From contig OY970368.1 of NCBI GenBank assembly GCA_963718615.1, forward strand, positions 2,720,001-2,784,000: 64,000 nucleotides of DNA, written 5' to 3'. The notes beneath the pieces were generated by a model. It was given only the letters and a program-made list of their open reading frames with translations, searched no databases and had not been told where the DNA came from. The stretch comes from an uncultured cyanobacterium. Its GTDB lineage: Bacteria; Cyanobacteriota; Cyanobacteriia; PCC-9006; JAAUQQ01. Positions 988 through 49,673 of this stretch are shown here, one piece after another (position 1 is the stretch's first letter; every line of letters begins with the position of its first letter). Both the position numbers and the translations under genes were made by a program.

Positions 988-2130
988 CTAGGCCAATGCT
1001 TGACCGGGCCACAGCAATCCCGAGGGCTGTTGCTGCGTTGCACAATGGAACGAGCCGCCGCCTGTAATCAGCCCTTGGGAAGGAATCCCGATCACCTCCC
1101 GAGGGGTGATGTCTAGCCCCTGAGGATTGCGCCAGTACCCTCGCAAAATCTCCAAGGCTTGCTCGTCATTTGGGTCATCATAGGTGGGTACCAATACCAC
1201 CCCGTTAGCGATATAAAAATTGGCATAGGTCAGCGGCAATCGTTCTCCCTGATACTCCATCCGTTTCTGGGGCAAGGGCAGCGGTATGACCGTTAAGCCC
1301 TGACCCTGCCGATCGCGATACTGCTGGAGCAATTCTAGGTTGGCTTGCAGGGGGGCAAAATTAGCATCCTCGGGAGCTTCGCAGAGGGAGGTGACAACGG
1401 TGCGATCGCCCACAAATCGCGTGATCGTATCAATATGACCATCCGTGTGGTCCCCCTCTAGCCCCTGCTCTAGCCAAAGGACCTCATGAATCCCCAAATA
1501 GTCTCGCAAATAGGCTTCGAGATCGGCCTGGGAGCATTGCGGATTGCGCGAGGTCGCCTGCAAGCATTGGCGGGTGGTGAGACAAAGCCCTTGGCCATTG
1601 ACCTCCAGCGCGCCTCCCTCCATAACGATGCCGGGATGAAAGAGTTGCAGACTGAGTAAGTCCGCCAGATGTTGGGGAATTTGATTATCGATCTCCGCCG
1701 GAAAGCGATTGCCCCAGGCATTAAAGATCCAATTCACCGCAGCGACTTGTTGGGCCGCATTCTTAACAAAAATGGGTCCACTGTCCCGCAGCCATAAATC
1801 GTGATTGGGGATCAGATGAAAGGCGATCGCCCCCGACTGCTGCGCTGCCTCAGAGAGAAACTTTTGGGCATTGGCCAAGATGGCTTCATCATGGACCAAA
1901 ACCCGCACCGGTTCAAACTCCGCCAAGCGATTCAAAAACAGGGCGAACTCGCTTCTCGCCAAATCTAAACCTGCTCCAAACCAATCATCCGCATCCCGAG
2001 GCCAGACGGTCCAGGTGGCTGCATGGGGATGCCATTCAGCGGGCTGAGCGAATCCTAGCTGGAGCGGTGTTGGGGGCAACGAAGGGGCGGCAGGGTAGGG
2101 CAAGGCGGTCATAACAAACGGAGAATTCAA
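988..2130 (-). CDS. Agmatine deiminase / peptidylarginine deiminase family protein
   Basis: PAEWHPH, DLWLRDSGP, MEGGALEVNGQG, DHTDGHID, TYANFY and GGGSFHCATQQQP motifs. The true start may be slightly downstream. Confidence 0.92.
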   Translation of the reverse strand: MNSPFVMTALPYPAAPSLPPTPLQLGFAQPAEWHPHAATWTVWPRDADDWFGAGLDLARSEFALFLNRLAEFEPVRVLVHDEAILANAQKFLSEAAQQSGAIAFHLIPNHDLWLRDSGPIFVKNAAQQVAAVNWIFNAWGNRFPAEIDNQIPQHLADLLSLQLFHPGIVMEGGALEVNGQGLCLTTRQCLQATSRNPQCSQADLEAYLRDYLGIHEVLWLEQGLEGDHTDGHIDTITRFVGDRTVVTSLCEAPEDANFAPLQANLELLQQYRDRQGQGLTVIPLPLPQKRMEYQGERLPLTYANFYIANGVVLVPTYDDPNDEQALEILRGYWRNPQGLDITPREVIGIPSQGLITGGGSFHCATQQQPSGLLWPGQALA

Positions 2131-2235
2131 ACCAATCGATTATGACAGCTCAGGAATCGGCTGATGCCTGTCCTGATTTTTGTCTTCTGGGTTAGAAATA
2201 GAAAGAAAGTTAGATTCGCTCAGGGGTCTTTATCC

Positions 2236-5200
2236 ATGGCTGTGATTACGATTCGGGAAAAGGCAACCACGGATTCTGATTTTACGGCGGTGGTGAGTTT
2301 TGATGGTCAGGTCGAGTACCCGGTCTCAATCAGCGATCCGTTTGCGGAACGGCCCAATCAGGAAAAGGAGCTGGAGTGGTATTTCGAGGGCTGGCTGCGG
2401 ATGCCGATGCTGGATACCACCATTGCGGAGCGGGCTGCGGCGAGCGTTGCGACCTATGGGGAACGTTTGTTCCAGCAGGTTTTCAAGGCGAATGCGGATG
2501 CCTATGCGGACTACCGAGGGTTGCGCAATCAGCTCAGCCAAGTTCAAATCGAGATTCAGGGCAGTTCTCCGGCGTTTCAGGCGTTGCATTGGGAGGCGCT
2601 GAAGGATCCGGATTTGCCGCGCCCGTTTGTGGTGGATGCGGTGATGTTGCGCAAGGATGTGCGGCCCAAGAGCAGCCGGGTGACGATGCAGCCGTCGCCG
2701 GTGATTAATTTGCTGGTGGTGACGGCGCGGCCCGATGAAGAAAAGGATGTGGGCTACCGGACGATTTCTCGGCCCCTGATCGAGGCGATTCAGCAGGCAC
2801 AACTACGGGTGAATGTTGAGCTGCTGCGTCCGGCGACGTTCCGGGCGCTGAGTGAGCATTTGCAGGAAAAGGGCGAGGGGTTTTATCACATTGTCCATTT
2901 TGATGCCCATGGCGGGTTGATGACCCACGGGCAGTTTCAGCAAGGGGTGGAGCGGAACCGCTATCTCTATCAGGCGCGCTATGGCCGCAGCGATCTGCAA
3001 CCCTATGAGGGGGTGAAGGCGTTTTTGTTTTTGGAAGGGGATAAGGCGGGGGAGGCGGACCCGGTGGAGGCGTCGGAATTGGCGGAGCTGCTGACGGGTA
3101 AGGGCGTGCCGGTTTGTATTCTGAATGCCTGCCAGTCTGCCAAGCAGGAGGGGCCGGTGGAGACCAGTCTGGGCAGTCGGCTGATGGCGGCGGGGATGCA
3201 GATGGTGGTGGCGATGGGTTATTCGGTGACGGTGACGGCGGCGCAGATTTTGATGGAGAAGCTGTACGCCAAACTGTTTGAACAGAAGGGGATGGCGGAG
3301 GCGATGCGGCTGGGGCGGCTGGAGCTGTATAACCGCAAGGAGCGGCGGGCCTATTTTAATCAGATGATTGATCTGGAGGATTGGCTGTTGCCGGTGGTTT
3401 ATCAGAACCGGACGGTGGAGCTGAATCTGCGGGAGTTTTCGCCCCAGGAGGAGAATGCCTATTACGAGGCGCTGGGGCGTCAGTTTCAGTTTGGCGTGAA
3501 TTTTAAGGGAGCGACCTATGGGTTTGTGGGTCGGGATTTGGAGATTCTCAAGATTGAGCGGGCGCTGCTGCGGCACAATGTTTTGCTGCTGCGGGGCATG
3601 GGCGGAACGGGGAAGACGACGCTGCTGAATTATCTGCGGGAGTGGTGGCAGGGGACGCGGTTTGCCCAGGAGATTTTCTATTTTGGCTATGACGAGAAGG
3701 CATTTACGCTGGAGCAGATTGTCTTTGCCATGGGTCAGCAGATCTACAGCCCAGCGGATATGTTGTCGTTTCAGGCGATGGGGCTGGTGGCGCAGGTGGC
3801 GAAGCTGAGTGCGAAGCTGAAGGCAGAGCCGTTTGTGTTGATGTTGGATAATTTGGAGTCGGTGACGGGGCAGGCGTTGGCGATTCAGAATACGTTGCCG
3901 CTGGCGGAGCAGGAGAAGATTCGGGATTTTCTGGCGCGGCTGGTGGGGGGCAAGACGCGGGTGCTGTTGGGCTCGCGCAGTCCGGAGGATTGGCTGAAGA
4001 CGGTGTATGGCGAGAATGTCTATCCGTTGCGCGGGTTGGATCAGGAGTCGCGGACAGTGTTGGCGGAGAAGATTTTGGCGCGGCAGGTGAAGGATGGGGG
4101 GCGGATTGAGCAGATTCGGGTGGATGCGGAGTTTGGGCGGTTGATGACGCTGTTGGCGGGGTATCCGTTGGCGATGGAGGTGGTGTTGGCGAATTTGGCG
4201 CGGCAGTCGCCTGCTGAGGTGTTGGCGGGGTTGGATGGGGCGGATGTGGATTTGGATGGGGGGAGCGGAGCGGGGGCGGCGGCTGGGGGGCAGGACAAAA
4301 CAACCAGCATTTTGAAATGTGTGGAGTATTCTCACAGTAATTTGTCGCCGGAGGCGCAGCGGTTGCTGTTGTGTTTAGCTCCGTTTCGGGGGTTTATTTT
4401 TCGGGATGCTTTGCCGCAATATGCTGCGCAGTTGAAGCAATTGGATGCGTTTTCGGATTGGGATTTTGGGCTGCTGGAGGGGGCGGTGCAGGAGGCGATG
4501 GATTGGGGGTTGCTGTCGCCGATTTCTGAGGAAACAGATCGGTTGTTGCGGATTCAGCCGGTGTTTCCCTATTTTTTGCGGACGAAGCTGCGGGAGCTGG
4601 ATGAAGAGGTTCAGGCGGCGCTGCGGGAGGGGTTTAAGAATCACTGTCGGGGGTTGGCGCAGTCTTATTTTCAGTTAATGACTTCGAAGGAGGCACAGGA
4701 GCGGCAGCTTGGGATTTTCTTCTGTCGGTTGGAGTATGAGAACTTGTATGCCGCATTGGAAACTTGTCTAACGCAGCAGGAAGAATTTTCGATTTTTCGC
4801 TGTCTCGATCAGTTTTTAGATCTTTCCGGTGATGTTCAATCGCGATTGGTGCTGTGCCAGCTCGTTTGTGAACAGGCTGGAAACTATCCCGCCGAGCAAT
4901 GCCTGGGTGAACGGGCAACTGATATCGCTGAAGCCTTATTGAAATTGGGAAATTGTTATTACAAAGCCCAGCAATACGAAACTGCTCAAGAAGCGTATCA
5001 GCAAAGTATTGAAATCCTGAAGCAATCCGGCAATCGCCAAGACTCAGCCACGGTCTACCACCAGTTGGGAATCGTCGCCCAGCAATTGCGCGAGTATGAG
5101 GAAGCCCGCCGCAACTATCAGCAGGCGCTGGAAATCTTTGTTGAATTTGGCGATCGCTACTCCCAAGCCAGCACCTACGGCCAGTTGGGAACAGTTGCTC

Positions 5201-5994
5201 TGGAATTGCGCGAGTATGACGAAGCCCGCCGCAACTATCAGCAGGCCCTCGAAATCTTTGTCGAATTTGGCGATCGCTACACCCAAGCCCGCACCTACCA
5301 CCAGTTGGGAAGGGTCGCCGAGGAATTGCGCGAGTATGACGAAGCCCGCCGCAACTATCAGCAGGCCCTCGAAATCTTTGTCGAATTTGGCGATCGCTAC
5401 ACCCAAGCCAGCACCTACCACCAGTTGGGAATCGTCGCCGAGGCATTGCGCGAGTATGACGAAGCCCGCCGCAACTATCAGCAGGCCCTCGAAATCAAAG
5501 TCGAATTTGGCGATCGCTACACCCAAGCCAGCACCTACCACCAGTTGGGAAGCGTCGCCCAGAAATTGCGCGAGTATGACGAAGCCCGCCGCAACTATCA
5601 GCAGGCCCTCGAAATCAAAGTCGAATTTGGCGATCGCTACGAGCAAGCCAGCACCTACGGTCAGCTCGGCCTCCTAGCTGCAGCCCAAGAAAACTACACC
5701 GAAGCCGGTCGCGCTCTGCTCCAAGCCCTAGAAATCTTCGCTGAATTTAACGATCAACATTCAGTTGCCCAGACCATTCAAAACCTCAACCGCCTCTACC
5801 AAACCACCCAAGACGCAACCCTCCTCACCGCCGCCGCCCAACTCCTCAACACCACCCCAGACGAACTCAAAGCCGCCCCGACGCCTTCCGCACAAACCAT
5901 CCTCACCCGCACCCAAGGCAGCTGGGGCCAGAAAACTCGTGAGGAAATCGACGCTCAAATTGCACAACAGCGGCAACAGGACTGGGGAGAATAA
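2236..5994 (+). CDS. CHAT protease - P-loop NTPase (STAND/NB-ARC-like) - TPR repeat protein (NLR-like)
   Basis: CHAT His/Cys motifs HFDAHG and LNACQS, Walker A GMGGTGKTT, Walker B LMLDNLE, GYPLAM motif and C-terminal 40-aa TPRs. ATG 2236 preferred over 2164. Confidence 0.9.
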   Translation: MAVITIREKATTDSDFTAVVSFDGQVEYPVSISDPFAERPNQEKELEWYFEGWLRMPMLDTTIAERAAASVATYGERLFQQVFKANADAYADYRGLRNQLSQVQIEIQGSSPAFQALHWEALKDPDLPRPFVVDAVMLRKDVRPKSSRVTMQPSPVINLLVVTARPDEEKDVGYRTISRPLIEAIQQAQLRVNVELLRPATFRALSEHLQEKGEGFYHIVHFDAHGGLMTHGQFQQGVERNRYLYQARYGRSDLQPYEGVKAFLFLEGDKAGEADPVEASELAELLTGKGVPVCILNACQSAKQEGPVETSLGSRLMAAGMQMVVAMGYSVTVTAAQILMEKLYAKLFEQKGMAEAMRLGRLELYNRKERRAYFNQMIDLEDWLLPVVYQNRTVELNLREFSPQEENAYYEALGRQFQFGVNFKGATYGFVGRDLEILKIERALLRHNVLLLRGMGGTGKTTLLNYLREWWQGTRFAQEIFYFGYDEKAFTLEQIVFAMGQQIYSPADMLSFQAMGLVAQVAKLSAKLKAEPFVLMLDNLESVTGQALAIQNTLPLAEQEKIRDFLARLVGGKTRVLLGSRSPEDWLKTVYGENVYPLRGLDQESRTVLAEKILARQVKDGGRIEQIRVDAEFGRLMTLLAGYPLAMEVVLANLARQSPAEVLAGLDGADVDLDGGSGAGAAAGGQDKTTSILKCVEYSHSNLSPEAQRLLLCLAPFRGFIFRDALPQYAAQLKQLDAFSDWDFGLLEGAVQEAMDWGLLSPISEETDRLLRIQPVFPYFLRTKLRELDEEVQAALREGFKNHCRGLAQSYFQLMTSKEAQERQLGIFFCRLEYENLYAALETCLTQQEEFSIFRCLDQFLDLSGDVQSRLVLCQLVCEQAGNYPAEQCLGERATDIAEALLKLGNCYYKAQQYETAQEAYQQSIEILKQSGNRQDSATVYHQLGIVAQQLREYEEARRNYQQALEIFVEFGDRYSQASTYGQLGTVALELREYDEARRNYQQALEIFVEFGDRYTQARTYHQLGRVAEELREYDEARRNYQQALEIFVEFGDRYTQASTYHQLGIVAEALREYDEARRNYQQALEIKVEFGDRYTQASTYHQLGSVAQKLREYDEARRNYQQALEIKVEFGDRYEQASTYGQLGLLAAAQENYTEAGRALLQALEIFAEFNDQHSVAQTIQNLNRLYQTTQDATLLTAAAQLLNTTPDELKAAPTPSAQTILTRTQGSWGQKTREEIDAQIAQQRQQDWGE
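5045..5680 (+). repeat. About five near-identical 120-bp TPR-coding tandem repeats
   Basis: GAAGCCCGCCGCAACTATCAGCAGG recurs at 5101, 5221, 5341, 5461 and 5581. Confidence 0.95.
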
Positions 5995-6000
5995 AGCCCG

Positions 6001-6144
6001 ATGAAATATCTGTTCGACAGCAATATCCTGATCTATCACCTCAACGGACAGCTCAATCAGCGGGGAATTGACCTCGCAGCCCATGCCCTCGGCAATCCGC
6101 ACCGCCTCCAAACTCGCCAATTGAAGCGTTGTAGCCAAAGTTGA
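6001..6144 (+). pseudogene. Truncated PIN-domain (VapC-like) toxin remnant
   Basis: ATG after a GGGGAGA RBS gives MKYLFDSNILIYHLN, the canonical PIN N-terminus. It stops after 47 codons inside the convergent Hsp20 gene. Confidence 0.65.
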
Positions 6145-6599
6145 AGCCGTTTTATGAGGCGATCGCGCCCCATCTTTTTCGACCCCTGCTTATATAACGT
6201 CAGCCACAACCCCTCCGCTTCAGTATCCATCCAGATCTGGTCCCCATCCACCGCACAGGGTAAAGGCACCACCCGTCGAAAGCGGCTATAGCAAAAGCCC
6301 CGTCCCGGCAAAATCCCCAGACTTTGGATGAGTCGTCGCTGTTCACCGGTCAAAACCACGCTATCTGATAAAACCTCGACCTGAACAGCCTCAGGGTTTA
6401 CACCGGGCAATTGGAAAAAAATAATCACCCTATCTGGGGTTTCGCTCCACTCAATGCCTGCCAACGCCTCGACCTGACTGACACAGTTTCCGCCCTGAAG
6501 GGAATGGAGCGTCCGAAAGACTTGATTGAGCGGTTGACCCATGATGTCATCCCAGACCATTCCCCTTTGCCAGCGATTAAACCCCATACCCACCTCCAT
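6057..6599 (-). CDS. Hsp20/alpha-crystallin family protein (divergent)
   Basis: ETPDRVIIFFQLPGVNPEAVQVEV...LTGE...YSRFRRVVPLP...GLWLTLYK alpha-crystallin pattern. Confidence 0.75.
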   Translation of the reverse strand: MEVGMGFNRWQRGMVWDDIMGQPLNQVFRTLHSLQGGNCVSQVEALAGIEWSETPDRVIIFFQLPGVNPEAVQVEVLSDSVVLTGEQRRLIQSLGILPGRGFCYSRFRRVVPLPCAVDGDQIWMDTEAEGLWLTLYKQGSKKMGRDRLIKRLQLWLQRFNWRVWRRCGLPRAWAARSIPR

Positions 6600-6976
6600 C
6601 CCAGCTTGCGCCAGGTTTGCTGCTCCTATGGTGCTGGATCGGCGGGAAATCGAGGGTAGGGAAGCCCTACCTGGGGCGATCGCTTTCCCCTACAAAGAGG
6701 AAGTTTGAAGGGATTCTGCGGTCCATCAATCGGCAAATAAATCAGAGAACAAATCAGAGAAAAATCGGTACTTGAATCAACACTTAAAGCAACGCTTGAA
6801 AGCCTTCAAAAATCTTCTTTGCCGAATAAACCTACCATCAAGCTGGTTTGGATTTATCGCAAAGTTATCAATGGACGAACTACTCCGAATATATACTGAA
6901 GCAGAGTTGGCAGTAGGGTGCTGTAAGAGAAGAGGCATAGGGTTGCACTATTCTGTACAATTTGGCGAAAAGATTC

Positions 6977-7663
6977 ATGACGACTCAAATTCTCACCCGT
7001 TTTGTTGATGAGAAAAATGGGACTTCCCTCTCGACTGAGCTACGCAGAAAGCGTTTTGAGCGATTTCGAACCCTCTTTGAGAGCTTACCAAAAATAGAAA
7101 ATAAACCGATTACGATTCTTGATGTAGGGGGACGAGTCACGACTTGGGAACGGGCTGGTTTTAGTCAGTATTCAAGTCAGCAAATTCAGATTACTATTCT
7201 CAATACAGAATCCGTTGTATCTCGTTACCCTCATATTCAGGTCATTTCTGGCGATGCTCGCCACATGCCAGAGTTTGCAAATCAGTCCTTCGATGTCGTG
7301 TTTTCTAACTCCGTGATTGAACATGTCGGGGATTTTGCCGATCAAACCCGAATGGCGGAGGAGATTCGGCGAGTGGGCAAACGCTATTTTCTGCAAACTC
7401 CGAATCGCTACTTTCCCATCGAACCTCACTTTCTGTTTCCCGGTTTCCAGTTTTTGCCGATCGCGCTCAAAATTAAGCTCATTCAAAGTTTTAATCTAGG
7501 TTGGCGGCCTAAAACACCGGACTATGAAGCTGCCAGCGAACTTGCGCGCAGCGTTGAGCTTTTGAGCAAAGGCCAGCTTGCCAAGCTTTTTCCCGGTGCC
7601 AAGATTTATGCGGAAAAATTTGGAGGTTTGAATAAGTCCTACATGGTCTGTGGCGGCTGGTAA
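6977..7663 (+). CDS. Class I SAM-dependent methyltransferase
   Basis: ILDVGG motif I, FDVVFSNSVIEHVG and QTPNRYFPIEPH motifs. Confidence 0.85.
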   Translation: MTTQILTRFVDEKNGTSLSTELRRKRFERFRTLFESLPKIENKPITILDVGGRVTTWERAGFSQYSSQQIQITILNTESVVSRYPHIQVISGDARHMPEFANQSFDVVFSNSVIEHVGDFADQTRMAEEIRRVGKRYFLQTPNRYFPIEPHFLFPGFQFLPIALKIKLIQSFNLGWRPKTPDYEAASELARSVELLSKGQLAKLFPGAKIYAEKFGGLNKSYMVCGGW

Positions 7664-16527: not shown

Positions 16528-17997
16528 ATGGTTCTTCCCATGACCTCCTCTCGATTGCTTGAGCTCGCAAAACAAGGCAGCGCCCCAGCGATCGCCACGC
16601 TGCTCAACCAGCAGTTACAGGCTAAGGGAATTTCGGCGATCGCATCTCGCCAAGGTCACTGTTTGCGGCTGCTTCTAGAGGCTGAGACGGAACCTCGGCA
16701 GGGCGCGATGGAGCAATATTTGCAGCATGCGTTTACGAAGCTAGAAGCGCTTTCTATTCAGCAGATTGAGGTTTATGGACGCGCGAAGGGATCCCTCAAA
16801 GGTTGGCAAACGCTGCTCTGTTTAAGCAACGGCTCGTTTGAACCAGCCACGTTCGTTTTTCCGAAGGTCTCATCTCAGTCATTCTCCCGACGAACGTCTC
16901 AATCGGCTCAATCCTCCCCTGCAATTTCGGCTAGAACTTCGGCCAAAACTTCAGTCAGAACCTCGACCCAAACATTACCCCAGCCTGTGGTCAAAACCTC
17001 GCTATCCAAGGGCTGGCGTCAGTCTTTTCCTCAGTTTCGGCGGCCTCGTTTTTTACAGCGACTGCAACCTGCCCCAACACCCACGCCCCAAACCCCTAAG
17101 CCCCCAACGTCCGCGAGCCCTCTTCGTTCTTTCTCCCCCCAAACCCCAATCGCCTTGCCCAAAATCTTGAGCGGTTCGTTTTGGAAAACTCGAACGAGTC
17201 AGATGTATCAGCAAACGATGCAGGTGCTCCATCGGCTTAGTCAGGGTCTACAGGATTGGGTTCTTCAGCCGATTGCTGAGTTTTTGGGTATTTGGTTGCA
17301 GTGGCAAATTGCAACGTTTGCCGCAACGTTAGTCACTGGATTTTTCGCAACGGTGAGTCTAGGGCTGATCTTTTTTGGCATTTTTAGTTTGTTTAATCGG
17401 ATTCCAGAGACGCAAGAATTCTTCCCGGTGCTCATGGGGATGATGACGATGATTCCGATCGCGGGTCTGCTGCTAGGTGATGCGCAAACGCGGCTCTTGC
17501 AACGCTGGCTACGACCCATCGGAGCGTGGCGATGGCTGACGATGGTGGGGTTTATGTTGGGATTTGGGGTGGCGCTGGGGATGCATTTTTTGATTTGCGC
17601 GATCGTTGAACCGCTGTTAACCCGGCCCAATCCAGAGTTTGTGATTGGTGTAAGTTTTGCCTTTATTGCAGTGACGATTGCGGTCGGATTAGGATTTGGG
17701 GTGCTCGGAGCACTGCAATGGTTGCCCCTGCGCGCCAGGGTGCCTCAGGCTTCCCAATGGATGATTATTAATCCCCTGGGGGCGATCGCCAGTTGGATTC
17801 TAGGAATGTTGATCGCGGGTCGTTGGCTGGGGCCGCTTTTGTTGGGCGATCGCGCTTCGGGTTCTAGTTTTTGGTCGACGCTCGGTCTATTTTTTGGAGG
17901 AGGCTTGCTCTCTTGGTTAATTTTTCATCTGATTAGCGGAGTCACGATGGCGCAGCTTTTGCGGCGGTTGCCTCGGCTGGAGGATGAGCGTTTATGA
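16528..17997 (+). CDS. Hypothetical multi-pass membrane protein with a cyanobacterial N-terminal domain
   Basis: N-terminal LAKQG...AIATLLNQQL motif, Ser/Pro-rich linker and about six hydrophobic segments. Start uncertain. Confidence 0.7.
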   Translation: MVLPMTSSRLLELAKQGSAPAIATLLNQQLQAKGISAIASRQGHCLRLLLEAETEPRQGAMEQYLQHAFTKLEALSIQQIEVYGRAKGSLKGWQTLLCLSNGSFEPATFVFPKVSSQSFSRRTSQSAQSSPAISARTSAKTSVRTSTQTLPQPVVKTSLSKGWRQSFPQFRRPRFLQRLQPAPTPTPQTPKPPTSASPLRSFSPQTPIALPKILSGSFWKTRTSQMYQQTMQVLHRLSQGLQDWVLQPIAEFLGIWLQWQIATFAATLVTGFFATVSLGLIFFGIFSLFNRIPETQEFFPVLMGMMTMIPIAGLLLGDAQTRLLQRWLRPIGAWRWLTMVGFMLGFGVALGMHFLICAIVEPLLTRPNPEFVIGVSFAFIAVTIAVGLGFGVLGALQWLPLRARVPQASQWMIINPLGAIASWILGMLIAGRWLGPLLLGDRASGSSFWSTLGLFFGGGLLSWLIFHLISGVTMAQLLRRLPRLEDERL

Positions 17998-18058
17998 TCT
18001 CAACTAAATCAAAATCGGTTGTCAGGGGTTTTGAATTGTTGGGTCACTGAATTCGAGT

Positions 18059-18247
18059 GTGTTGGGGTTTCATCAGGTTTCGGAGCAGGCTCAAGCCCGT
18101 CTGGGGGAGCTGTTGGAGCGCACTCGGGTGGCTCAGTTGACGCCGGGTGAGGTGGCTGAGCTGGATTTGTATGAGCAATTGGACCAGATGATGCGGATGC
18201 TGAAGATGCGGACGTTTGCGATCGCCCCTCAGGCCAAGGTTTCTTGA
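18059..18247 (+). pseudogene. C-terminal fragment of a small antitoxin-like protein
   Basis: SEQAQARLGELLE....LTPGEVAELDLYEQLDQMMRMLK resembles the C-terminal half of a common cyanobacterial small protein. No good start codon. Confidence 0.45.
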
Positions 18248-18573
18248 GTGTTTTCGGTTGGAGGGTGCGATCGCCCGGACTCCAAAATCACCGCTGTCAC
18301 CGCTTCCACTGATTTTGCTTGTAGGGTGGATACAAGACACAGCGCTTTATCAACCAAGCGAGCGGCGTCCTCGTAGCTTTCTTGATTCGGCAAAACCAAT
18401 TGAATCGGCTGACCTTGATCGTCGGTGCCAACGGTTTTGTTGGCTTGGAAAATGCGTAGTCGAGGGTTGGGATGGGAAATTTCGGTCCAGTCGTGCTTGA
18501 GCAGGTAGGCCGCGAAATCAGCGGGCGGGAGAGCCCCGACTTGAGGGGAACTGGTGAGAATTTCGGCGGTCAT
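18229..18573 (-). CDS. Hypothetical protein (typical partner downstream of DUF4365)
   Basis: ATG 18573 overlaps (ATGA) the stop of the upstream remnant. Pattern AAYLLKHDW...LVLP....YED. Confidence 0.6.
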   Translation of the reverse strand: MTAEILTSSPQVGALPPADFAAYLLKHDWTEISHPNPRLRIFQANKTVGTDDQGQPIQLVLPNQESYEDAARLVDKALCLVSTLQAKSVEAVTAVILESGRSHPPTENTQETLA

Positions 18574-18765
18574 GGCCACTCTCCTGTCTTGACTTTCTGC
18601 ATTAAGGCTAGCAAAGATTCTGGGGTTAGGCGTTGTCGGCGATCGATGCGGATGCGAACGGTGCGCCGGTTATCGCTGAGGCTGCCGCTCAAATACTCCC
18701 AGTAGCAGGCTCCGCGTAGCTTCATTACTAGAATATTGGCCGAGTCGAGATTTTGGGACCAGTTT
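18570..18765 (-). pseudogene. C-terminal remnant of a DUF4365-like protein
   Basis: Manual translation ...LRGACYWEYLSGSLSDNRRTVRIRIDRRQRLTPESLLALMQKVKTGEWP* matches the DUF4365 C-terminal pattern. The 5' part is absent. Confidence 0.55.
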
Positions 18766-18828
18766 ATGAAGCATATTTTTCGATGGAATTTCTTAAAGGG
18801 GGGTAACAGATGAGAGTGTTATGGGAGT

Positions 18829-19896
18829 ATGATTCCTGAGCTACCAGGGTTTGATATGAGTGAGATCGATGCTCGGGATTACGCTGATTTTTTCTGTACT
18901 GTGCAGGAGCGGATTCGCGATCGCCAACTCAATGCGCTGCGCAAGATCAACCATGAACTGGTTTCGCTCTATTGGGAAATTGGGCAGTTGATTCACCAGA
19001 AGCAGGAAGCTTTGGGCTGGGGAAAGTCGGTTGTCGAAACGCTGGCGCGAGATTTGCAGACAAACTTTCCTGGGCAAAAGGGCTTCTCGGCTCAAAATTT
19101 GTGGTTCATGCGCCAGTTTTATGACGAGTATGCTGACCAACCAAATCTCCAACCACTGGTTAGAGAAATCAGTTGGACCAAAAATCTGGTGATTTTCAGT
19201 CGCTGTAAGGATATGTTGGAGCGGGAGTTTTACCTACGGGCGACGGCTCGCTATGGCTGGACTAAGCGGGTGCTTCAGCATCAGCTAGATAACAAAAGCT
19301 ATGAGAAGTTCTTGCTCAATCAGACCAATTTTGAGGAAACGCTGCCGGAGGAAATTAAGGGGCAAGCGCTGCTGGCGCTGAAGGACCGTTATACGTTTGA
19401 TTTTTTGGAGTTGGCGGATGCCCATTCGGAGCGGGAGCTAGAGCTAGCGCTGGTGCAGAATGTGCGGGTGTTTTTGGCTGAGCTGGGTGGGGCGTTTGCG
19501 TTTCTAGGGAATCAGTATCGCTTGGAGGTGGGTGGGCAGGAGTATTTTATTGATTTGCTGCTGTTCCATCGGCGATTGCGCTGTTTGGTGGCGATCGAGC
19601 TAAAAATTGGGGAGTTTAAGCCGGAGCATAAGGGCAAGATGGAGTTTTATTTGGAGGCGTTGGACCGGCAGGAGCGGATGGAGGGGGAGAATGCGCCGAT
19701 TGGGATGATTATTTGCCGTTCTAAGAATAAGACGGTGGTGGAGTATGCGTTGCGGACGGCGAGTCGTCCGATTGGGGTGGCAACCTATGAGATTGTGCCG
19801 CAGTTGCCGGAGGCTTATCGGGAGGAGTTACCGAGTCCAGAGGCGATCGCGGAACGACTAAGACTTTGGGATGCAAGAAAGGTTGAAGATCAATGA
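18829..19896 (+). CDS. DUF1016 / YhcG family PD-(D/E)XK nuclease-domain protein
   Basis: LYWEIG, WGKSVVETLARDL, GFSAQNLWFMRQFY, LKDRYTFDFL and FIDLLLFHRRLRCLVAIELK motifs. Confidence 0.93.
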   Translation: MIPELPGFDMSEIDARDYADFFCTVQERIRDRQLNALRKINHELVSLYWEIGQLIHQKQEALGWGKSVVETLARDLQTNFPGQKGFSAQNLWFMRQFYDEYADQPNLQPLVREISWTKNLVIFSRCKDMLEREFYLRATARYGWTKRVLQHQLDNKSYEKFLLNQTNFEETLPEEIKGQALLALKDRYTFDFLELADAHSERELELALVQNVRVFLAELGGAFAFLGNQYRLEVGGQEYFIDLLLFHRRLRCLVAIELKIGEFKPEHKGKMEFYLEALDRQERMEGENAPIGMIICRSKNKTVVEYALRTASRPIGVATYEIVPQLPEAYREELPSPEAIAERLRLWDARKVEDQ

Positions 19897-19947
19897 ATTG
19901 AGAGATATGTCCTACCTCAAAAAGAGGTAGGGGGCTGGGGGTGGCAG

Positions 19948-22900
19948 TTAGGGCCACTGCTTGCAGATGTCGCGGGTGGTTTGGAGGAGGGTGGAGAAGG
20001 TTGCGTCGTTGCTGAGGTGGAGGAGGATGAGGGGGCGGATTTTGGGGAGGGCTTTGAGGAGGGCACTGCGGTTTTGGTAGGCGAGGGTGTCGAGGGTTTT
20101 GGCCCAGTCGGGGAAGGTTGGGGTGAGTTGGAGGAGGTGGGGCAGGAAGCCTTGCAGGGCTTTGGCGCGGAAGTAGGGGTCTTGGATATTCCAGGCGGCT
20201 TGTAGGGATTGGGGGAGGAGTTCGGGGGGGAGATGCTCGGCTAAACCGCTCAGGGCGATTGCCCGACTGGACTCGTCTTTGAGTTGAGAGGCCATTCCTA
20301 GCACTTCAGATAAAAGTTCCGGGAACAACTGCTTGCAGAGTCTAATCAGTGTCCAAAGCTGAAGAGCCCGCTGTCTTTCATCTTTGAGTTCTCGGGTGAC
20401 TTCCAGTGCTTCGGGCAATAACTCCGGCAACTGTTTCGAGAGTTCTACCAGGGCATCAGCTCGCTGCCATTCCTCTTTGAGCCCTCGGGTGACCTCCAGT
20501 GCTTCGGGCAATAGCTCGGGCAACTGTTCTGAGAGTTTTCTCATTCCCCAAGCCCGCTGCCATTCATCTTTGAGCTCTCGGGTGACTTCTAGCGCTTCGG
20601 GCAATAGCTCGGGCAACTGTTTCGAGAGTTCTCTCAGTGCAGAAGCCCGCTGCCTTTCATCCTTGATGTCTCGGGTGACCTCCAGTGCTTCGGGCAATAG
20701 CTCAGGCAACTGTTTGGAAAGTTCTATCAGTGCATCAGCCCGCCGCCATTCAGCCTTGATGTCTCGGGTAACCTCCAGTGCTTCAGGCAATAGCTCCGGC
20801 AACTGTTTCGAGAGTTCTATCAGTGCATCAGCCCGCCCCCCTTCATCCTTGATCTCTCGGGTGACCTCCAGAGCTTCGGGCAATAGCTCCGGCAACTGTT
20901 TCGAGAGTTCTCTCAGGGCATCAGCCCGCGATCCTTCATCTTTGAGTTCTCGGGTGACCTCCAGAGCTTCGGGCAATAGCTCCGGCAACTGTTTCGAGAG
21001 TTCTCTCAGGGCATCAGCCCGCTGCCATTCATCCTTGATGTTTCGGGTGACCTCCAGCGCTTCCGGCAATAGCTCCGGCAACTGTTTCGAGAGTTCTCTC
21101 AGGGCAAAAGCCCGCTCCCATTCCTCTTTGAGTTCTCGGGTGACCTCCAGTGCTTCGGGCAATAGCTCCGGTAACTGTTTTGAGATTTCAATCAGGGCAA
21201 AAGCCCGCTGCCATTCCTCTTTGAGTTCTCGGGTGAGCTCCAGCGCTTCGGGCAATAGCTCCGGCAACTGTTTGGAGAGGTCTCTCAGTGCATAAGCCCG
21301 CTGCTGTTCATTCTTGATATCTCGGGTGAGCTCCAGCGCTTCTGGCAATAGCTCGGGCAACTGTTTGGAGAGGTCTATCAGTGCATAAGCCCGCTGCCAT
21401 TCATCTTTGATCTCACGCGTGACTTCCAGCACTTCTGGCAATAGATCGGGCTGTCTTTCCGCTAAGGCCACCAAAGCCTCCGCTCGATCCGCTACATCGT
21501 TCATGCTTCGAGCCAGATCAAGGACCTCACCCAGATAACTAGCAGGCAGCTTAGAAGATAACTGAGTGATCGCAAAGGCACGATAGGAAAAACCTTCATT
21601 TTGATGGCGATGATTCCCAAAACGATCCTGAATCTGACGAATTGTTTCCAAAACCTCCGGCCAAAACTGCGGAAACCGTTCTGCCAGCTCAGCCAATACA
21701 TAGGACCGATAGGCCGCATCCCGAATCCCAGCCACCGCCCGCAACACCTCATCCAACAACGCCTCCGGCATATAGGGCACAATTGCAGCAATACACGCCG
21801 CCCGCTGCCAAGGATTCTGCGCCTGCTGGGCATAGGCCAACCCCTGGGCCGGTGACCAAACCTCCGCCTGCACCAACGCCCCCACCAATGACCCAGGCAC
21901 ATTACTCGCCAAACTATTCAACGATCCCCGGATCAAGGCATAGCGCCACAACAGCACCAGCGTCTCCCCCGGTGCCGCCTGATAATTCTCCACCGCCAGC
22001 CGCCAAGCCCGCCCCAGATCATTGACAAATCCCGCCGGTTTGCCGATCGCCTCACAAGCCTCAAACCACCCATTCTGCCCCCGCCCATTGCTCGCCGCCA
22101 ACAACCGATGAATCTCCTGGGGCTGCCGCGCCTGCTCCAGGTGCCAAGTCAACTGGGCAAAAATATAGCCATCATCCGCCAGCGTATGCCACTGCCCCTG
22201 GTCCGTCCGCGCCCGATACCGCTGCAAAAACTCACTGTGGGCCTCCGCCTTCGTCAGCCCCAGCCCCGGCAAATCCCCCGGCTCCAGAGGTTGCGGCGGA
22301 CTGATCAACAACCGCTGGGCCAAATCATGCATCAAATCATGCATCCGGTACGTCCGCCGATTGCCCGACCGCTTCACCCCCTGCAACAACAACGCCTTCG
22401 CACTAAACGTCCGCAAAATCGACCCCGCTTGCCGCGCCGTCACCTGCCACAACATCACCGCCATCTCCTGGGTCAAGCTCACATCCTCCGGCACAATCCC
22501 CAACCAAGCAAACTGCCGCAACTGCTCCAGCGAAAGCTGCTTCAGACTCAGGTTAAAACAAGCCAGCAAACTGTACCTGCGCCGCTTGGCATCATCCGGG
22601 ATATCCTCCCGCCCATACAAATCCAACCCCTCCAGCCGCGCCACCTCATCCCGAAAATCCTCAAACAACTCCGTCCAACTCACCCCCTCCTCAATCTGCG
22701 ACGCCGCCAATTCCAACGCCAAGGGCAAATAGCCCACCCGCTGAGCAAACGCCAACGCCTGCTGCCGATCCGCCTCGCTCAACGCCTCCGACAACTTCTG
22801 CGTCATCAGTTCCAACGCCTGCTCCGGACTCATCACATCCAAGTCATAGCGGTGCGCCTCCGAAATCCGCGCCTCCCGCGTCGTCACCAACACACAACAG

Positions 22901-24105
22901 CCCGTTCCCCCCACCCGAAACGGCTCCAGATGATCCGGATTCCAAACATCATCAACAATCACCAACGCCCGCTTATCGTAGAGCAACGTCCGCAAATGGT
23001 TCGAGGCCGACTCGATCGCCGTCGGCGTAAAATCGTTATCCCCCAACGCCTGAATCCAACCGCTCAACAACGGCAAAATATCCGGACTCTGCCCCAACGT
23101 CGCCCACAAAATCCCATCACAAAACCGCGCCTGCACCTGATCATCATGGGCCAACTTCGACGCCAACACCGACTTGCCAATGCCCCCCAAGCCATAAATC
23201 GCACTCACCACCAGTGTCCCGTAGGTCCTCGCATCCTCACAGAGCAACTGCTGCTTTACCTGTTCCTGGTGTTCAGGCCGCTCGACAAAATGATCCGGCA
23301 GCGGCGGCATTTGCAGCGGAATCGCCCGGTTGCGGTAAGACTGGGGCGCTGGCTTCTGGGCTACCTGGGACTCCGGCGGCACAGTGCCAAACGTCAGAAT
23401 CATCGACCCACTCGTACTGTGACACCGAAAGCCCTGAATCTGACCCTTCAGCCGCTGCTCCAGGGAATGGGTCAACGCCCCACTCGTCACATCCCCCCGG
23501 CTCGGGTCCAACCCCTCCAAGAGCGCAGCGGTCAAAACACTGTAGGGCGACGCCAAATCTTCGTAGGATGCCTCAAAATCGCGGGAAGACGTGATGAAAT
23601 AGCGATCGCGCACCTTCCCCCCCTTCGTACTCGTCAACTCACCAAAATTCAACAACGTTCCACTACTGCAACAATCCAACCAAACAATCTGCTGCCGCAC
23701 CGCGCTCTGCTCCAGCTGATCCCGCAGCCATTGCAGCTCCACCCCATAGTCATCCTCTGGGTCCCCATTGCTCGGAGCCAGATAGCCCTCCGTAGCGCTG
23801 ATAGCCTTCTTCCAACCATGTCCCGAAAAATACAGCAACGCCGTATCCGGCACCTGATCGCTGCTGGGCGGGTTAAACAGTTGAACGATGGCTTCCCGCA
23901 TTTGCTTTCGAGTCACCGGAATTTGCTGAGCGACCTGAGGATTCCCGGAGGCGATCGCCTCCGGCAACCGTTTCACCGTCGTAAAACGCCCGTGCTGCTC
24001 TAGGCGTTGGGCGATCGCCTCCGCATCCGTCGCAGGTGCTTTGAGATTGCCAAATTTGGAATGAGAATAGCAGTTGATACCAACAATCAGGGCGTCTCGA
24101 CTCAT
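19948..24105 (-). CDS. Caspase-like (C14) protease - NB-ARC - helical domain - 31-aa tandem helical repeat protein (NLR/APAF-like)
   Basis: ALIVGIN.Y, FSGHG and LDCC dyad motifs, Walker A GLGGIGKS, Walker B IVDDVW, GYLPLAL, MHDL and C-terminal repeats. Confidence 0.92.
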   Translation of the reverse strand: MSRDALIVGINCYSHSKFGNLKAPATDAEAIAQRLEQHGRFTTVKRLPEAIASGNPQVAQQIPVTRKQMREAIVQLFNPPSSDQVPDTALLYFSGHGWKKAISATEGYLAPSNGDPEDDYGVELQWLRDQLEQSAVRQQIVWLDCCSSGTLLNFGELTSTKGGKVRDRYFITSSRDFEASYEDLASPYSVLTAALLEGLDPSRGDVTSGALTHSLEQRLKGQIQGFRCHSTSGSMILTFGTVPPESQVAQKPAPQSYRNRAIPLQMPPLPDHFVERPEHQEQVKQQLLCEDARTYGTLVVSAIYGLGGIGKSVLASKLAHDDQVQARFCDGILWATLGQSPDILPLLSGWIQALGDNDFTPTAIESASNHLRTLLYDKRALVIVDDVWNPDHLEPFRVGGTGCCVLVTTREARISEAHRYDLDVMSPEQALELMTQKLSEALSEADRQQALAFAQRVGYLPLALELAASQIEEGVSWTELFEDFRDEVARLEGLDLYGREDIPDDAKRRRYSLLACFNLSLKQLSLEQLRQFAWLGIVPEDVSLTQEMAVMLWQVTARQAGSILRTFSAKALLLQGVKRSGNRRTYRMHDLMHDLAQRLLISPPQPLEPGDLPGLGLTKAEAHSEFLQRYRARTDQGQWHTLADDGYIFAQLTWHLEQARQPQEIHRLLAASNGRGQNGWFEACEAIGKPAGFVNDLGRAWRLAVENYQAAPGETLVLLWRYALIRGSLNSLASNVPGSLVGALVQAEVWSPAQGLAYAQQAQNPWQRAACIAAIVPYMPEALLDEVLRAVAGIRDAAYRSYVLAELAERFPQFWPEVLETIRQIQDRFGNHRHQNEGFSYRAFAITQLSSKLPASYLGEVLDLARSMNDVADRAEALVALAERQPDLLPEVLEVTREIKDEWQRAYALIDLSKQLPELLPEALELTRDIKNEQQRAYALRDLSKQLPELLPEALELTRELKEEWQRAFALIEISKQLPELLPEALEVTRELKEEWERAFALRELSKQLPELLPEALEVTRNIKDEWQRADALRELSKQLPELLPEALEVTRELKDEGSRADALRELSKQLPELLPEALEVTREIKDEGGRADALIELSKQLPELLPEALEVTRDIKAEWRRADALIELSKQLPELLPEALEVTRDIKDERQRASALRELSKQLPELLPEALEVTRELKDEWQRAWGMRKLSEQLPELLPEALEVTRGLKEEWQRADALVELSKQLPELLPEALEVTRELKDERQRALQLWTLIRLCKQLFPELLSEVLGMASQLKDESSRAIALSGLAEHLPPELLPQSLQAAWNIQDPYFRAKALQGFLPHLLQLTPTFPDWAKTLDTLAYQNRSALLKALPKIRPLILLHLSNDATFSTLLQTTRDICKQWP
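20330..21450 (-). repeat. About twelve 93-bp tandem repeats encoding LPELLPEALEVTRxxKxExxRAxALxELSKQ
   Basis: Repeats read directly in the protein; GCCCGC anchor at 20552 and 20645 gives the 93-bp period. Confidence 0.95.
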
Positions 24106-48347: not shown

Positions 48348-49673
48348 ATGTCTGTACTGATTTCTGATGGAGAGATTGCAGCCATCCGATTTATCCGAAT
48401 TGTGTGCACCAAAGCACCAGATGAAGTGAAGAGCCAGCTCGAAAGTTATATTAAGAATAATGATTGGAGCAGTCTTCTACAATGGTCAAAGCCCCTATTA
48501 CCCAGATTTAATTTGAGCGAGTTTACTCAGGTAGAGCTTGCTGAAGTCGCGCCGTTAACGACGATGCGGCAGGATGTCTATCTATTTCTGAAAAATGTCG
48601 AGAATTCCACCAACTTACAATTGAAAGAGGCAATCTCCAAGCTGCAAGAGTGGGGTGGATGGGAATCAATCGCTAAGATTGTGCAAGACAATCCTAAAAT
48701 TCCTTTCCAGTTCACCGGTACCGACGTCCAAGCCGTTTTAGACCCAGTTGGAAAGCTCCCGGCGCTTACGCATAGTCAGATTCAAGCAAAGACTTTTCTT
48801 AATACCATTGCTAATGATCCGAAAGCAGCGAGACTAAAAGAGATGGTTGCAAAGATGCAACAGTGGGGTGGATGGGAATCAATCGCTAAGATTGTGCAAG
48901 ACGATCCTAAAATTCCCTTCCAGTTCAATGGTTCTGACGTAAAGGCTCTACTAGATACGCGGGGTCAGATTACTGAACGCAGTATTACCCAGATCGAATC
49001 TTTATTGAGCATCCTCTCTTTCTATTCGACTTTAGAGCAGAAATCTAAGCAAGATGAAGAAGTAAAGAAATTCTTCGACGATATCAGCAAGCGTGTTCAG
49101 CACGGCTGCTGGAAATCGATTGCTGATATTGTCAACAACAATGAAAAAATTCCTTTTAAGGGATTCACCGTACCCGACCTGAAATTGGTGCTAGACCCTG
49201 AAGATAACTATGGCGACGATCCTATTTGTCAGGCACTGAAACCTCCTGTTCCCCCGGCATGGACAGTGCCAATAGTTTGGACAATACAATTTGGTAAGGA
49301 CGCTGTCAACTGGACGACTGGGGCTGCCAACGATGTGGCTGACTGGACGACTGGGGCTGCCAACGATGTGGCTGACTGGACGACTGGGGCTGCCAACGAT
49401 GTGGCTGACTGGACGACTGGGGCTGCCAACGATGTGGCTGACTGGACGGTCGGGGCTGGCAAAGATGCTGTAGATTGGACGGCCGGGGCTGCCAACGATG
49501 TGGCTGACTGGACGGTCGGGGCTGGCAAAGATGCTGTAGATTGGACGGCCGGGGCTGCCAACGATGTGGCTGACTGGACGGTCGGGGCTGGCAAAGATGC
49601 TGTAGATTGGACGGTCGGGGCTGCCAACGATGTGGCCGATGCGTTAGACCCCAGAAAATACTTTAGATTTTAG
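48348..49673 (+). CDS. Hypothetical protein: three to four ~71-aa N-terminal repeats and ten C-terminal 11-aa repeats
   Basis: AGGAG RBS. WGGWESIAKIVQD.PKIPFQF occurs twice plus degenerate copies. (A/G)(N/K)D(V/A)(A/V)DWT(T/V/A)GA array. Confidence 0.85.
   Translation: MSVLISDGEIAAIRFIRIVCTKAPDEVKSQLESYIKNNDWSSLLQWSKPLLPRFNLSEFTQVELAEVAPLTTMRQDVYLFLKNVENSTNLQLKEAISKLQEWGGWESIAKIVQDNPKIPFQFTGTDVQAVLDPVGKLPALTHSQIQAKTFLNTIANDPKAARLKEMVAKMQQWGGWESIAKIVQDDPKIPFQFNGSDVKALLDTRGQITERSITQIESLLSILSFYSTLEQKSKQDEEVKKFFDDISKRVQHGCWKSIADIVNNNEKIPFKGFTVPDLKLVLDPEDNYGDDPICQALKPPVPPAWTVPIVWTIQFGKDAVNWTTGAANDVADWTTGAANDVADWTTGAANDVADWTTGAANDVADWTVGAGKDAVDWTAGAANDVADWTVGAGKDAVDWTAGAANDVADWTVGAGKDAVDWTVGAANDVADALDPRKYFRF
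49293..49640 (+). repeat. Ten 33-bp coding tandem repeats with 66-bp higher-order units
   Basis: GACTGGACGACTGGGGCTGCCAACGATGTGGCT and variants are contiguous. Confidence 0.95.

Follow-up and report, generated by a model that had tools for sequence, protein, structure and literature searches.

A strand-composition reversal within an NLR-like gene of an uncultured cyanobacterium, and mirror-image skew islands at repeat arrays and restriction loci of the same genome

Closest described systems

The present analysis concerns a stretch of 64,000 nt (hereafter the window; positions 2,720,001 to 2,784,000 of contig OY970368.1, assembly GCA_963718615.1) from an uncultured cyanobacterium, and a gene near its left end, here called locus 1, which encodes a STAND or NLR-like protein with CHAT, NACHT and TPR domains. 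Within the single open reading frame (ORF) of this gene the plus strand changes from strongly G/T-rich to strongly C/A-rich, and reversals of the same order were found at 34 places in the genome. These reversals are referred to below as islands, each having a left arm in which the plus strand is G/T-rich (K), a nearly neutral centre, and a right arm in which it is C/A-rich (M).

Several processes are known to leave the two strands of DNA with different compositions. In replication-associated GC or keto skew the leading strand is rich in G and T and the sign changes at the origin and the terminus, for which single-strand exposure is the usual explanation. Transcription-associated asymmetry is seen as an excess of G+T on the non-template strand. 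In yeast and in cancers, strand-coordinated mutation clusters switch strand at a break. Repeat-induced point mutation (RIP) in fungi affects both strands of the repeats themselves. Diversity-generating retroelements (DGRs), which target STAND sensors in multicellular cyanobacteria, depend on a reverse transcriptase and a template repeat and alter adenines within some 100-150 bp of variable sequence. The NLR-like (STAND) proteins of fungi and bacteria are known to carry repeats with high internal conservation.

The genes studied here share with those NLR-like proteins the order of effector, NACHT or NB-ARC domain and then TPR, WD40 or other repeats, and also the near identity of their repeat units (82-98% matches within arrays), which implies frequent unequal recombination. 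The pattern resembles DGR activity in being a localised mutational process on immune-type genes of filamentous cyanobacteria, but its tracts are 1.5-3 kb in length, two-sided, mirror-symmetric and mostly limited to synonymous sites. In contrast to RIP, asymmetry is seen in the flanks, most arrays having a skew close to zero themselves. With replication skew the pattern has in common the bases favoured on one strand and an order, plus then minus, that is the order of a terminus; however, its domains are 3-10 kb rather than replichore-sized, 34 of them with the same polarity lie all round the chromosome, their amplitude is far larger (70-80% G or C at 4-fold degenerate sites), and they are centred on arrays or specificity cassettes. 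It lies on the same K-versus-M axis as transcription asymmetry and in part follows gene ends, whereas the sign reverses inside single genes and operons and the arms cross divergent as well as convergent gene borders.

The strand switch at an initiating site and tracts of about kilobase length, matching resection, are shared with the mutation clusters of yeast and cancers. They are shared also with meiotic break hotspots, for which PMC5698624 describes a much faster deamination of resected 3' single strands than of duplex DNA and a change of base composition by biased gene conversion; as at those hotspots, a signal of single-strand damage is combined here with GC enrichment. The differences are that the organism is a bacterium, that the footprint is at long-term compositional equilibrium rather than made of individual events, that gain of G and not C>T dominates, and that the hotspots would here be tandem arrays and hsdS-type cassettes. 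We know of no initiating nuclease for such hotspots. A full-text literature search (subscription journals and supplements lay outside its scope) returned no account of bacterial repeat arrays or defence operons with local, mirror-image domains of skew, and to our knowledge a strand-asymmetric footprint in the flanks of NLR-like repeats has not been described.

Composition reversal within locus 1

The genome (handle G000, contig C1) is a single contig of 6.1 Mb with 52% GC. Judging from its homologues, which start at MxVITIRE, the true start of the locus-1 gene is probably the ATG at 2236. Comparison with Pfam gave a CHAT domain at aa 99-395 (75.9 bits; cut-off 24) and TPRs at aa 918-1216 (TPR_12, 168.5 bits; TPR_1, 116.2 bits). 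The NACHT match at aa 473-639 was borderline (26.4 bits against a cut-off of 26.7; E 7.2e-6), NB-ARC, AAA_16 and AAA_22 scored weaker, and a Walker A motif, GMGGTGKTT, is located at about aa 477-485 of the translation. With an N-terminal effector (CHAT) and a C-terminal repeat sensor (TPR), the protein has the two end regions that mark bacterial NLR-like STAND NTPases, with a candidate NACHT-type P-loop NTPase between them; the NLR models of PADLOC gave no match for the gene.

Third-position skew, calculated as (G+T-C-A)/N in windows of 150 codons, was +0.44 at the 5' end of the gene, +0.89 at 3814-4263, +0.04 at 4714-5163 and -0.56 at 5464-5913, with a zero crossing near 4900. Codon positions 1 (-0.11 to +0.35) and 2 (-0.33 to +0.05) were far flatter. 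GC skew in 300-bp windows went from +0.516 (4051-4350) to -0.349 (5701-6000); it was -0.10 within the TPR array and -0.21 to -0.35 across the M arm out to 6600. The range of skew within this gene was 1.43 in 120-codon windows, compared with 1.04 for the 99th percentile of 2419 ORFs of at least 300 aa. A first-pass annotation of the window had described a G/T-rich stretch at about 2260-4750, a neutral one at about 4750-5040 and a C/A-rich one from there to 5994. The reversal inside one reading frame is real and extreme, and these boundaries proved right within about 100 nt, except that the C/A-rich arm runs on to about 6600. The same annotation had centred the flip on the repeats. Many arrays across the genome bear this out (see below), but in locus 1 the sign changes (aa ~885-961, nt ~4816-5046) in a linker of low conservation immediately 5' of the TPR array, which has a mild C/A excess of its own.

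At 4-fold sites the left part of locus 1 has 62-80% G, 6-23% C, 6-12% T and 3-4% A, and the region 5014-5994 has 74% C, 11% A, 9% T and 6% G; the genome-wide values are 35% C, 30% G, 19% T and 15% A. The K strand is G-rich with C avoided, and T is favoured only where the choice is between C and T. The direction of the codon endings, G/T-rich and then C/A-rich, had thus been read correctly, but the 4-fold sites are overwhelmingly G (mirrored, C) and not a mixture of G and T.

The ORF set used for the whole genome was a crude longest-ORF call, and the key frame-dependent counts were therefore redone on Pfam-validated frames. The 4-fold composition of K segments in these frames was G.71, C.12, T.09 and A.07 (T/C 3.6; G/A 7.0), and that of M segments C.76, G.09, A.07 and T.07 (A/G 3.7; C/T 5.0). 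The two codon sets are strand mirrors, and all eight 4-fold codon families share one preference, on which the neighbouring base has almost no influence. In both arm types the 4-fold GC is raised (0.82 and 0.87 vs 0.63), and amino-acid use is shifted as such a bias predicts, Gly and Val being increased in K and Thr, Pro, Gln, Asn and His in M. Because of the mirror relation, the raised 4-fold GC and the shifted amino-acid use, we consider that the bias acts at the DNA level and is not a codon preference. Nor do the favoured codons agree with a translational bias, i.e. a tRNA-specific use of the preferred codons of highly expressed genes: psbA and rbcL, for both of which family matches are present in the genome, and the ribosomal-protein genes, all taken as highly expressed, have a 4-fold G of 0.16-0.33 and a 4-fold C of 0.30-0.45, use C and T, and follow neither the K nor the M set. 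Codon preference as the cause of the flip, which the first-pass annotation had already discounted, is effectively excluded.

In K windows the 2-fold ratios T/C and G/A go up from 1.7 to 5.5 and from 1.1 to 8.4, respectively, and 4-fold sites are 74% G and only 11% T, which fits a spectrum dominated by C>T only with an added force favouring GC. The single-strand deamination (C>T and A>G) that was initially suggested does not suffice for this composition, as on its own it predicts T-rich 4-fold sites. Since these sites are 70-80% G with raised GC, a GC-favouring component is required.

The same K-to-M flip is present at the same place in homologues from genomes G003 (same family), G011 and G033 (other families), at 68-73% nucleotide identity. 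In the K arm the identity at 4-fold sites among G000, G033 and G011 was 0.45-0.58, against 0.43-0.53 expected under independence, and 4-fold G in the homologues is still 57-74%. Because these sites are saturated and yet G is retained, the bias is renewed in each lineage rather than inherited frozen. The centre of locus 1 is its least conserved part, with an amino-acid identity to the homologues of 0.28-0.42 against mostly 0.55-0.9 elsewhere, and the sole part which fails to align at the DNA level (all three homologues). The arms look constrained at the protein level, in view of the mostly third-position skew and of an identity to homologues that is mostly 0.55-0.9 in the arms and dips to about 0.42. 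Apart from its own repeats, locus 1 has no nucleotide paralogue in the genome and thus no ectopic donor for the gene. The palindrome GCGATCGC, typical of the cyanobacterial phylum, occurs within the repeat units. It speaks for a cyanobacterium, as do psbA and rbcL: of 14 control genomes, Synechococcus elongatus was the sole bacterial one with matches to the two families. The five TPR units show 30 changes from the majority base, too few for a spectrum, and a metagenome search for close relatives with which to polarise substitutions yielded only homologues at 45-47% identity and one fragment.

Skew islands and their centres

Keto skew was computed along the genome in 1-kb windows (standard deviation 0.082); regions beyond |0.22| were called skewed, and pairs of regions were counted if they lay within 6 kb. 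There were 168 skewed regions, 84 positive and 84 negative, spread over the whole contig. Adjacent regions formed 34 pairs in the order plus then minus and 5 in the order minus then plus; 2000 shuffles of the signs gave a mean of 13.8 and a maximum of 22. The 34 plus-then-minus islands cover 3.1% of the genome. In a typical island the left arm is G-rich and about 1.9 kb long (GC 0.55), the neutral centre likewise measures about 1.9 kb (GC 0.48), and the right arm is C-rich and about 1.65 kb long (GC 0.54). Replication-driven skew would show one sign change at an origin and one at a terminus; here the regions are local and the cumulative skew is irregular chromosome-wide. The sign of the surrounding region was kept in 94-98% of 97 stretches without an ORF of at least 150 aa inside skewed regions, a figure with some circularity, skew having been the criterion by which the regions were selected.

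Long-period tandem arrays were defined without regard to skew by Tandem Repeats Finder (period at least 60, at least 2.5 copies, at least 300 bp; n=37). Eighteen of the 37 lie inside the islands, and 16 of these 18 at the island centre. The mean GC skew of the 1-kb flanks was +0.22 on the left and -0.16 on the right (Wilcoxon p=1.3e-8); a positive left flank with a negative right flank was seen at 21 of the 37 arrays and the opposite signs at 1. Strong flank pairs (>0.2 and <-0.2) numbered 12 against 0 in the opposite sense, the rate at random positions being 0.44%. Sign changes and repeat arrays thus coincide, which was the check that the first-pass annotation had proposed, and the affected strand switches at the proposed initiating site, at arrays and at islands alike, as in the footprint of a break or recombination hotspot. 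For 25 arrays with at least 82% matches, the mean skew was about +/-0.25 beside the array and fell smoothly to 0 by about 3.25 kb on both sides; the decay agrees with the scale of resection or heteroduplex tracts, the right arm of locus 1 excepted.

A second NLR-like gene of the window, a caspase-NB-ARC gene on the minus strand (locus 2), has its zero crossing at its array. The left flank of this array has a GC skew of +0.43 and the right flank one of -0.30, with -0.09 inside the array; the third-position skew of the gene by thirds, from 5' to 3', is 0.55, 0.65 and -0.16. The K arm extends through a separate convergent gene for a YhcG-type nuclease, whose third-position skew climbs toward the locus-2 centre (0.29, 0.63, 0.64).

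Three distant genes (3189300-3191700, 4362750-4364400 and 5071450-5073750) carry 102-bp TPR arrays with 84-92% nucleotide identity to one another, and therefore exchange or conversion between loci appears to have occurred. Together, the homogenisation of arrays, this identity between loci and the association of hsdS with cargo (see below) provide indirect evidence that island centres vary or recombine.

These counts bear on the possibility, also raised in the first pass, that the halves of the gene are a chimera whose donors, or former genomic surroundings, differed in codon usage or strand orientation. The locus-1 zero crossing does coincide with a domain junction and a poorly conserved linker, and island centres are lower in GC than the arms (0.48 vs 0.55), as foreign inserts might be. 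Random joining, however, gives both polarities equally, whereas the counts are 34 vs 5 for islands and 21 vs 1 for arrays. Moreover, K and M are exact mirrors, the same domain is K-rich or M-rich according to its position in the architecture, and the homologues keep the flip at the same place despite saturated synonymous sites. A chimeric origin is effectively excluded.

The main genes of the 34 islands are STAND/CHAT/TPR/WD40 genes in 19 cases, restriction-modification genes in 6, TPS-domain exoproteins in 3, a chaperone-usher operon in 1 and other genes in 5. With 15 of the islands on other kinds of gene, the pattern is not specific to NLR-like sensors. In locus 1 CHAT is K-rich and TPR M-rich, and in TPR-CHAT genes CHAT is M-rich; either domain (CHAT, TPR) can thus be K-rich or M-rich depending on the architecture, and the sign is set by position and not by domain identity. 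The restriction-modification islands comprise 3 type I and 3 Eco57I/MmeI-like loci, type IIG enzymes being among those that show the pattern. At all three type I loci hsdM is K-rich (in one, only an hsdM fragment is present), hsdR is M-rich and hsdS lies in the neutral centre, which carries cargo in addition: IS1 transposase, HepT, Fic and DUF genes.

One of the type I loci (655025-661606) looks degraded, having an hsdM fragment (the C-terminal part of N6_Mtase only), an hsdR fragment of 444 aa, and Fic and IS1 between them; its arms are still at third-position skews of +0.68 and -0.77. A stretch of 840 bp, 93% identical and in opposite orientation, is present in two island centres (~1500659-1501498 and ~658614-659452), and at the second it overlaps an ORF with an IS1-type transposase domain. 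A trivial cause, the convergence of two membrane-protein genes, is probable for the island at 4373300-4378400, which holds MurJ and a Na/H exchanger and peaks at 0.24 and -0.28. A leuC-like gene of the aconitase family (4094535-4095941, plus strand) shows a 4-fold C of 88% over the first 150 codons and of 62-70% over the rest, far above psbA, rbcL and the ribosomal-protein genes; it was considered as a case of spill-over into a housekeeping gene and dropped, being C-rich over its full length (62-88%).

The type I operons are also relevant to an explanation by convergent transcription, in which sense RNA over the 5' part of a gene and antisense RNA over the 3' part would, through damage to the non-template strand, make the inward-reading strand G/T-rich. 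The polarity would fit the G+T excess of non-template strands, both NLR-like genes of the window have a convergent downstream ORF (6057-6599, minus; 18829-19896, plus), no terminator-like site was found between 5995 and 6056, and the K arm of locus 1 starts at the 5' end of the gene. A scan of 1900-7000 for promoters and terminators gave counts no higher than in shuffles and no informative site. On the other hand, transcription asymmetry keeps a constant sign per unit, whereas here the sign flips within one ORF and within co-directional operons, in which hsdR is M-rich. The psbA, rbcL and ribosomal-protein genes, taken as the most transcribed, are not K-rich; of 14 single-gene islands tabulated by hand, 7 have a downstream neighbour that reads in the same direction as the gene; some arms span the 5' ends of divergent pairs, e.g. 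the TPR and subtilase genes at 1991499-1995300; and the raised 4-fold GC is not predicted. We regard this explanation as quite unlikely.

The position of the arrays would suit a different explanation, that replication forks stall or converge at arrays or cassettes and that the exposed lagging-strand template acquires a local, terminus-like skew without breaks. It predicts the polarity of a replication terminus, the arrays are central, the decay is graded over kilobases, and with an irregular cumulative skew forks may come from either side. Nothing shows, however, that coding arrays of 0.3-3 kb or hsdS cassettes block forks; the raised GC at synonymous sites and the array-free islands (17 of 34) are left unexplained, and so is the homogenisation of arrays between loci, which needs recombination. 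On these grounds stalled forks seem to us an improbable source of the islands.

A proposed origin of the arms, and its weight

The reading that we prefer, and to which we give a probability of about one half, is that 3'-ended strands repeatedly become single-stranded around break- or recombination-prone centres and that this exposure, combined with GC-biased repair, produces a genome-wide, DNA-level and strand-symmetric bias. Breaks or recombination intermediates would recur at the centre, which is of one of two kinds, near-identical protein-repeat arrays in STAND/CHAT/TPR/WD40 genes or the hsdS-plus-cargo segment of type I operons, and the bias would radiate about 1.5-3 kb both ways. Exposure might come about by 5'-to-3' resection from breaks at the centre, or by polar strand assimilation (RecA polarity) during allelic exchange of the centre. 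The strand with its 3' end toward the centre would gain G (T where only C and T are synonymous) and lose C and A, leaving the plus strand G/T-rich on the left and C/A-rich on the right irrespective of gene orientation. The polarity argument of the first-pass annotation was of this form, and it stands: left and right of the centre alike, G and T are enriched on the strand that has its 3' end directed at it.

Loss of C (and A) from the exposed strand would favour T over C and G over A at 2-fold sites, and GC-biased mismatch repair or gene conversion, if added, would make G the sink state at 4-fold sites. In a rough two-parameter estimate (our own arithmetic, with no fitted model), a GC bias of about 8-fold and an asymmetry of C loss of about 25-fold would roughly give the 2-fold and 4-fold ratios. 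The bias saturates synonymous sites and shifts amino-acid use, yet the protein is better conserved over the arms than over the centre. A RecJ-type 5'-3' exonuclease is present in the genome; RecC was looked for in the genome and was not found.

A number of observations weigh against this reading. All of the evidence is compositional, and the GC-biased component is unproven. In the K arm of locus 1 the 4-fold T/C is about the genome value (0.63 vs 0.55), where pure deamination predicts T-rich sites. The M skew of locus 1 strengthens with distance from the centre (-0.17 to -0.56), and the K arm begins abruptly at the 5' end of the gene, the adjoining PAD gene being normal, so that the arms of this locus look gene-bounded rather than distance-graded. 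Seventeen of the 34 islands have no array and 19 of the 37 arrays lie outside islands, some arrays with 94-98% matches have flat flanks, and the paralogous TPR-CHAT genes are non-independent cases. Two metagenome homologues at about 45% amino-acid identity have no flip. Replication in other genomes was weak: of 18 arrays in G150, 7 had the expected sign pair, 2 the opposite and none a strong one, and of 7 arrays in G033, 4 had the expected pair and 0 the opposite, with none strong on both sides.

Most of 29 CHAT loci from other cyanobacterial genomes are unskewed, and in 400 kb G023 has no skewed region and G067 has 14. The bias is thus strong in G000 and some cyanobacteria and weak or undetected in others, and hence a lineage-specific repair or recombination factor must modulate it.

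Runs of 94 nt with G or T at every third base (NNK) were counted in 201 genomes of the phylum, with between 0 and about 2500 per genome. The highest counts are those of G000 (1379) and of eight genomes of the g32 genus (7-8 Mb; 1020-2497); most others have fewer than 500 and G012 has 0. The count was not used as evidence, since low-complexity repeats inflate it and the top scorer, G150, has only weak skew in the flanks of its arrays.

The uneven distribution among homologues bears as well on selection acting on the nucleic acid itself, whether for fewer palindromes (restriction sites) or hairpins in host-hopping genes, or for tuned RNA or R-loops of costly defence genes. The enrichment of the islands in defence or variable genes would agree with it (19 of 34 STAND/CHAT/TPR/WD40; 6 of 34 restriction-modification), as would the maintenance of the bias at the same position in homologues over saturated divergence and the match of some arm limits with gene ends. 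Yet avoidance of palindromes or structure needs no fixed order of plus then minus, and a decay with distance from arrays is not predicted; the skew spills into neighbouring genes and ORF-free stretches, most of the 29 CHAT loci, like the two homologues of about 45% identity, function without it, and the shift in amino acids looks like pressure rather than design. Selection of this kind is in our opinion very unlikely.

If the arms do record recurrent single-strand exposure, hotspots of recombination or breakage in bacterial genomes could be mapped by simply scanning composition, and these hotspots would sit at the variable modules of immune genes, namely NLR-like repeat sensors, hsdS and the target-recognition domains of restriction enzymes. 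This would have a bearing on the diversification of bacterial NLR-like sensors and of restriction specificities. There would, in addition, be a bacterial case in which GC-biased conversion and single-strand damage together are strong enough to fix 70-80% of 4-fold sites and to alter the composition of proteins. A further proposal, that some cyanobacteria run a targeted, recurrent break-and-repair or cassette exchange at NLR-like sensor arrays and restriction specificity modules, is speculative and on the whole unlikely. Such a process would be a bacterial counterpart of recombination hotspots serving the diversification of immune receptors, and the mirror-image arms would be its long-term kataegis-like footprint, usable to find hotspots from sequence alone.

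Features of the window

The coordinates of the features of loci 1 and 2 are collected in Table 1.

Table 1. Features of the two NLR-like loci in the window
Feature	Position	Strand	Remarks
CHAT-NACHT-TPR (STAND/NLR-like) gene, locus 1	2164-5994	+	1276 aa; single ORF covering the whole flip interval
K arm, locus 1	2050-4750		Plus strand G/T-rich, skew climbing toward centre; outer edge 2050, peak 4150
Neutral centre of lower GC, locus 1	4750-5050		Linker, NACHT-associated helical region to TPRs; GC ~0.48
Tandem array, locus 1	5055-5658	+	120-bp (40-aa) TPR units, 5.0 copies, 92% matches; Tandem Repeats Finder
M arm, locus 1	5050-6600		Plus strand C/A-rich, past stop codon through small downstream ORF; outer edge 6600
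Convergent ORF in M arm of locus 1	6057-6599	-	180 aa; no Pfam or PADLOC match
Caspase-NB-ARC gene, locus 2	19948-24105	-	1385 aa; Pfam Peptidase_C14 and NB-ARC
Tandem array, locus 2	20365-21451		93 bp x 11.7 copies, 87% matches; at skew zero crossing
K arm, locus 2	17250-20350		Extends through separate convergent gene
YhcG-type PDDEXK nuclease gene	18829-19896	+	PADLOC candidate system PDC-S02; Pfam, PADLOC
M arm, locus 2	21450-23400		M on plus strand; over 5' part of minus-strand gene; 1-kb GC skew -0.373 at 22001-23000

One further array of the window, at 49309-49636 (66 bp x 5.0, 95% matches), has no skew in its flanks (left +0.02, right +0.08) and does not follow the array rule. A TPR-CHAT gene of 798 aa (41738-44134, plus strand) has a coding strand that is C/A-rich over 41700-43200, about the 5' 60% of the gene, with the midpoint of the C/A-rich region at about 0.31 of the gene and no above-threshold K arm to its left; it follows that the 5' end of a gene can be M-rich.

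Long antisense ORFs lie inside the skewed arms of both loci, at 2803-4335 (minus strand, 510 aa) in locus 1 and at 22108-24003 (plus strand, 631 aa) in locus 2. The first codon position of the frame of the former pairs with the third position of the sense frame, and this ORF is a by-product, because A is avoided at sense third positions and its stop codons are thereby removed. Skewed regions thus yield long spurious antisense ORFs and odd codon usage, which can mislead gene callers and detectors of horizontal transfer.

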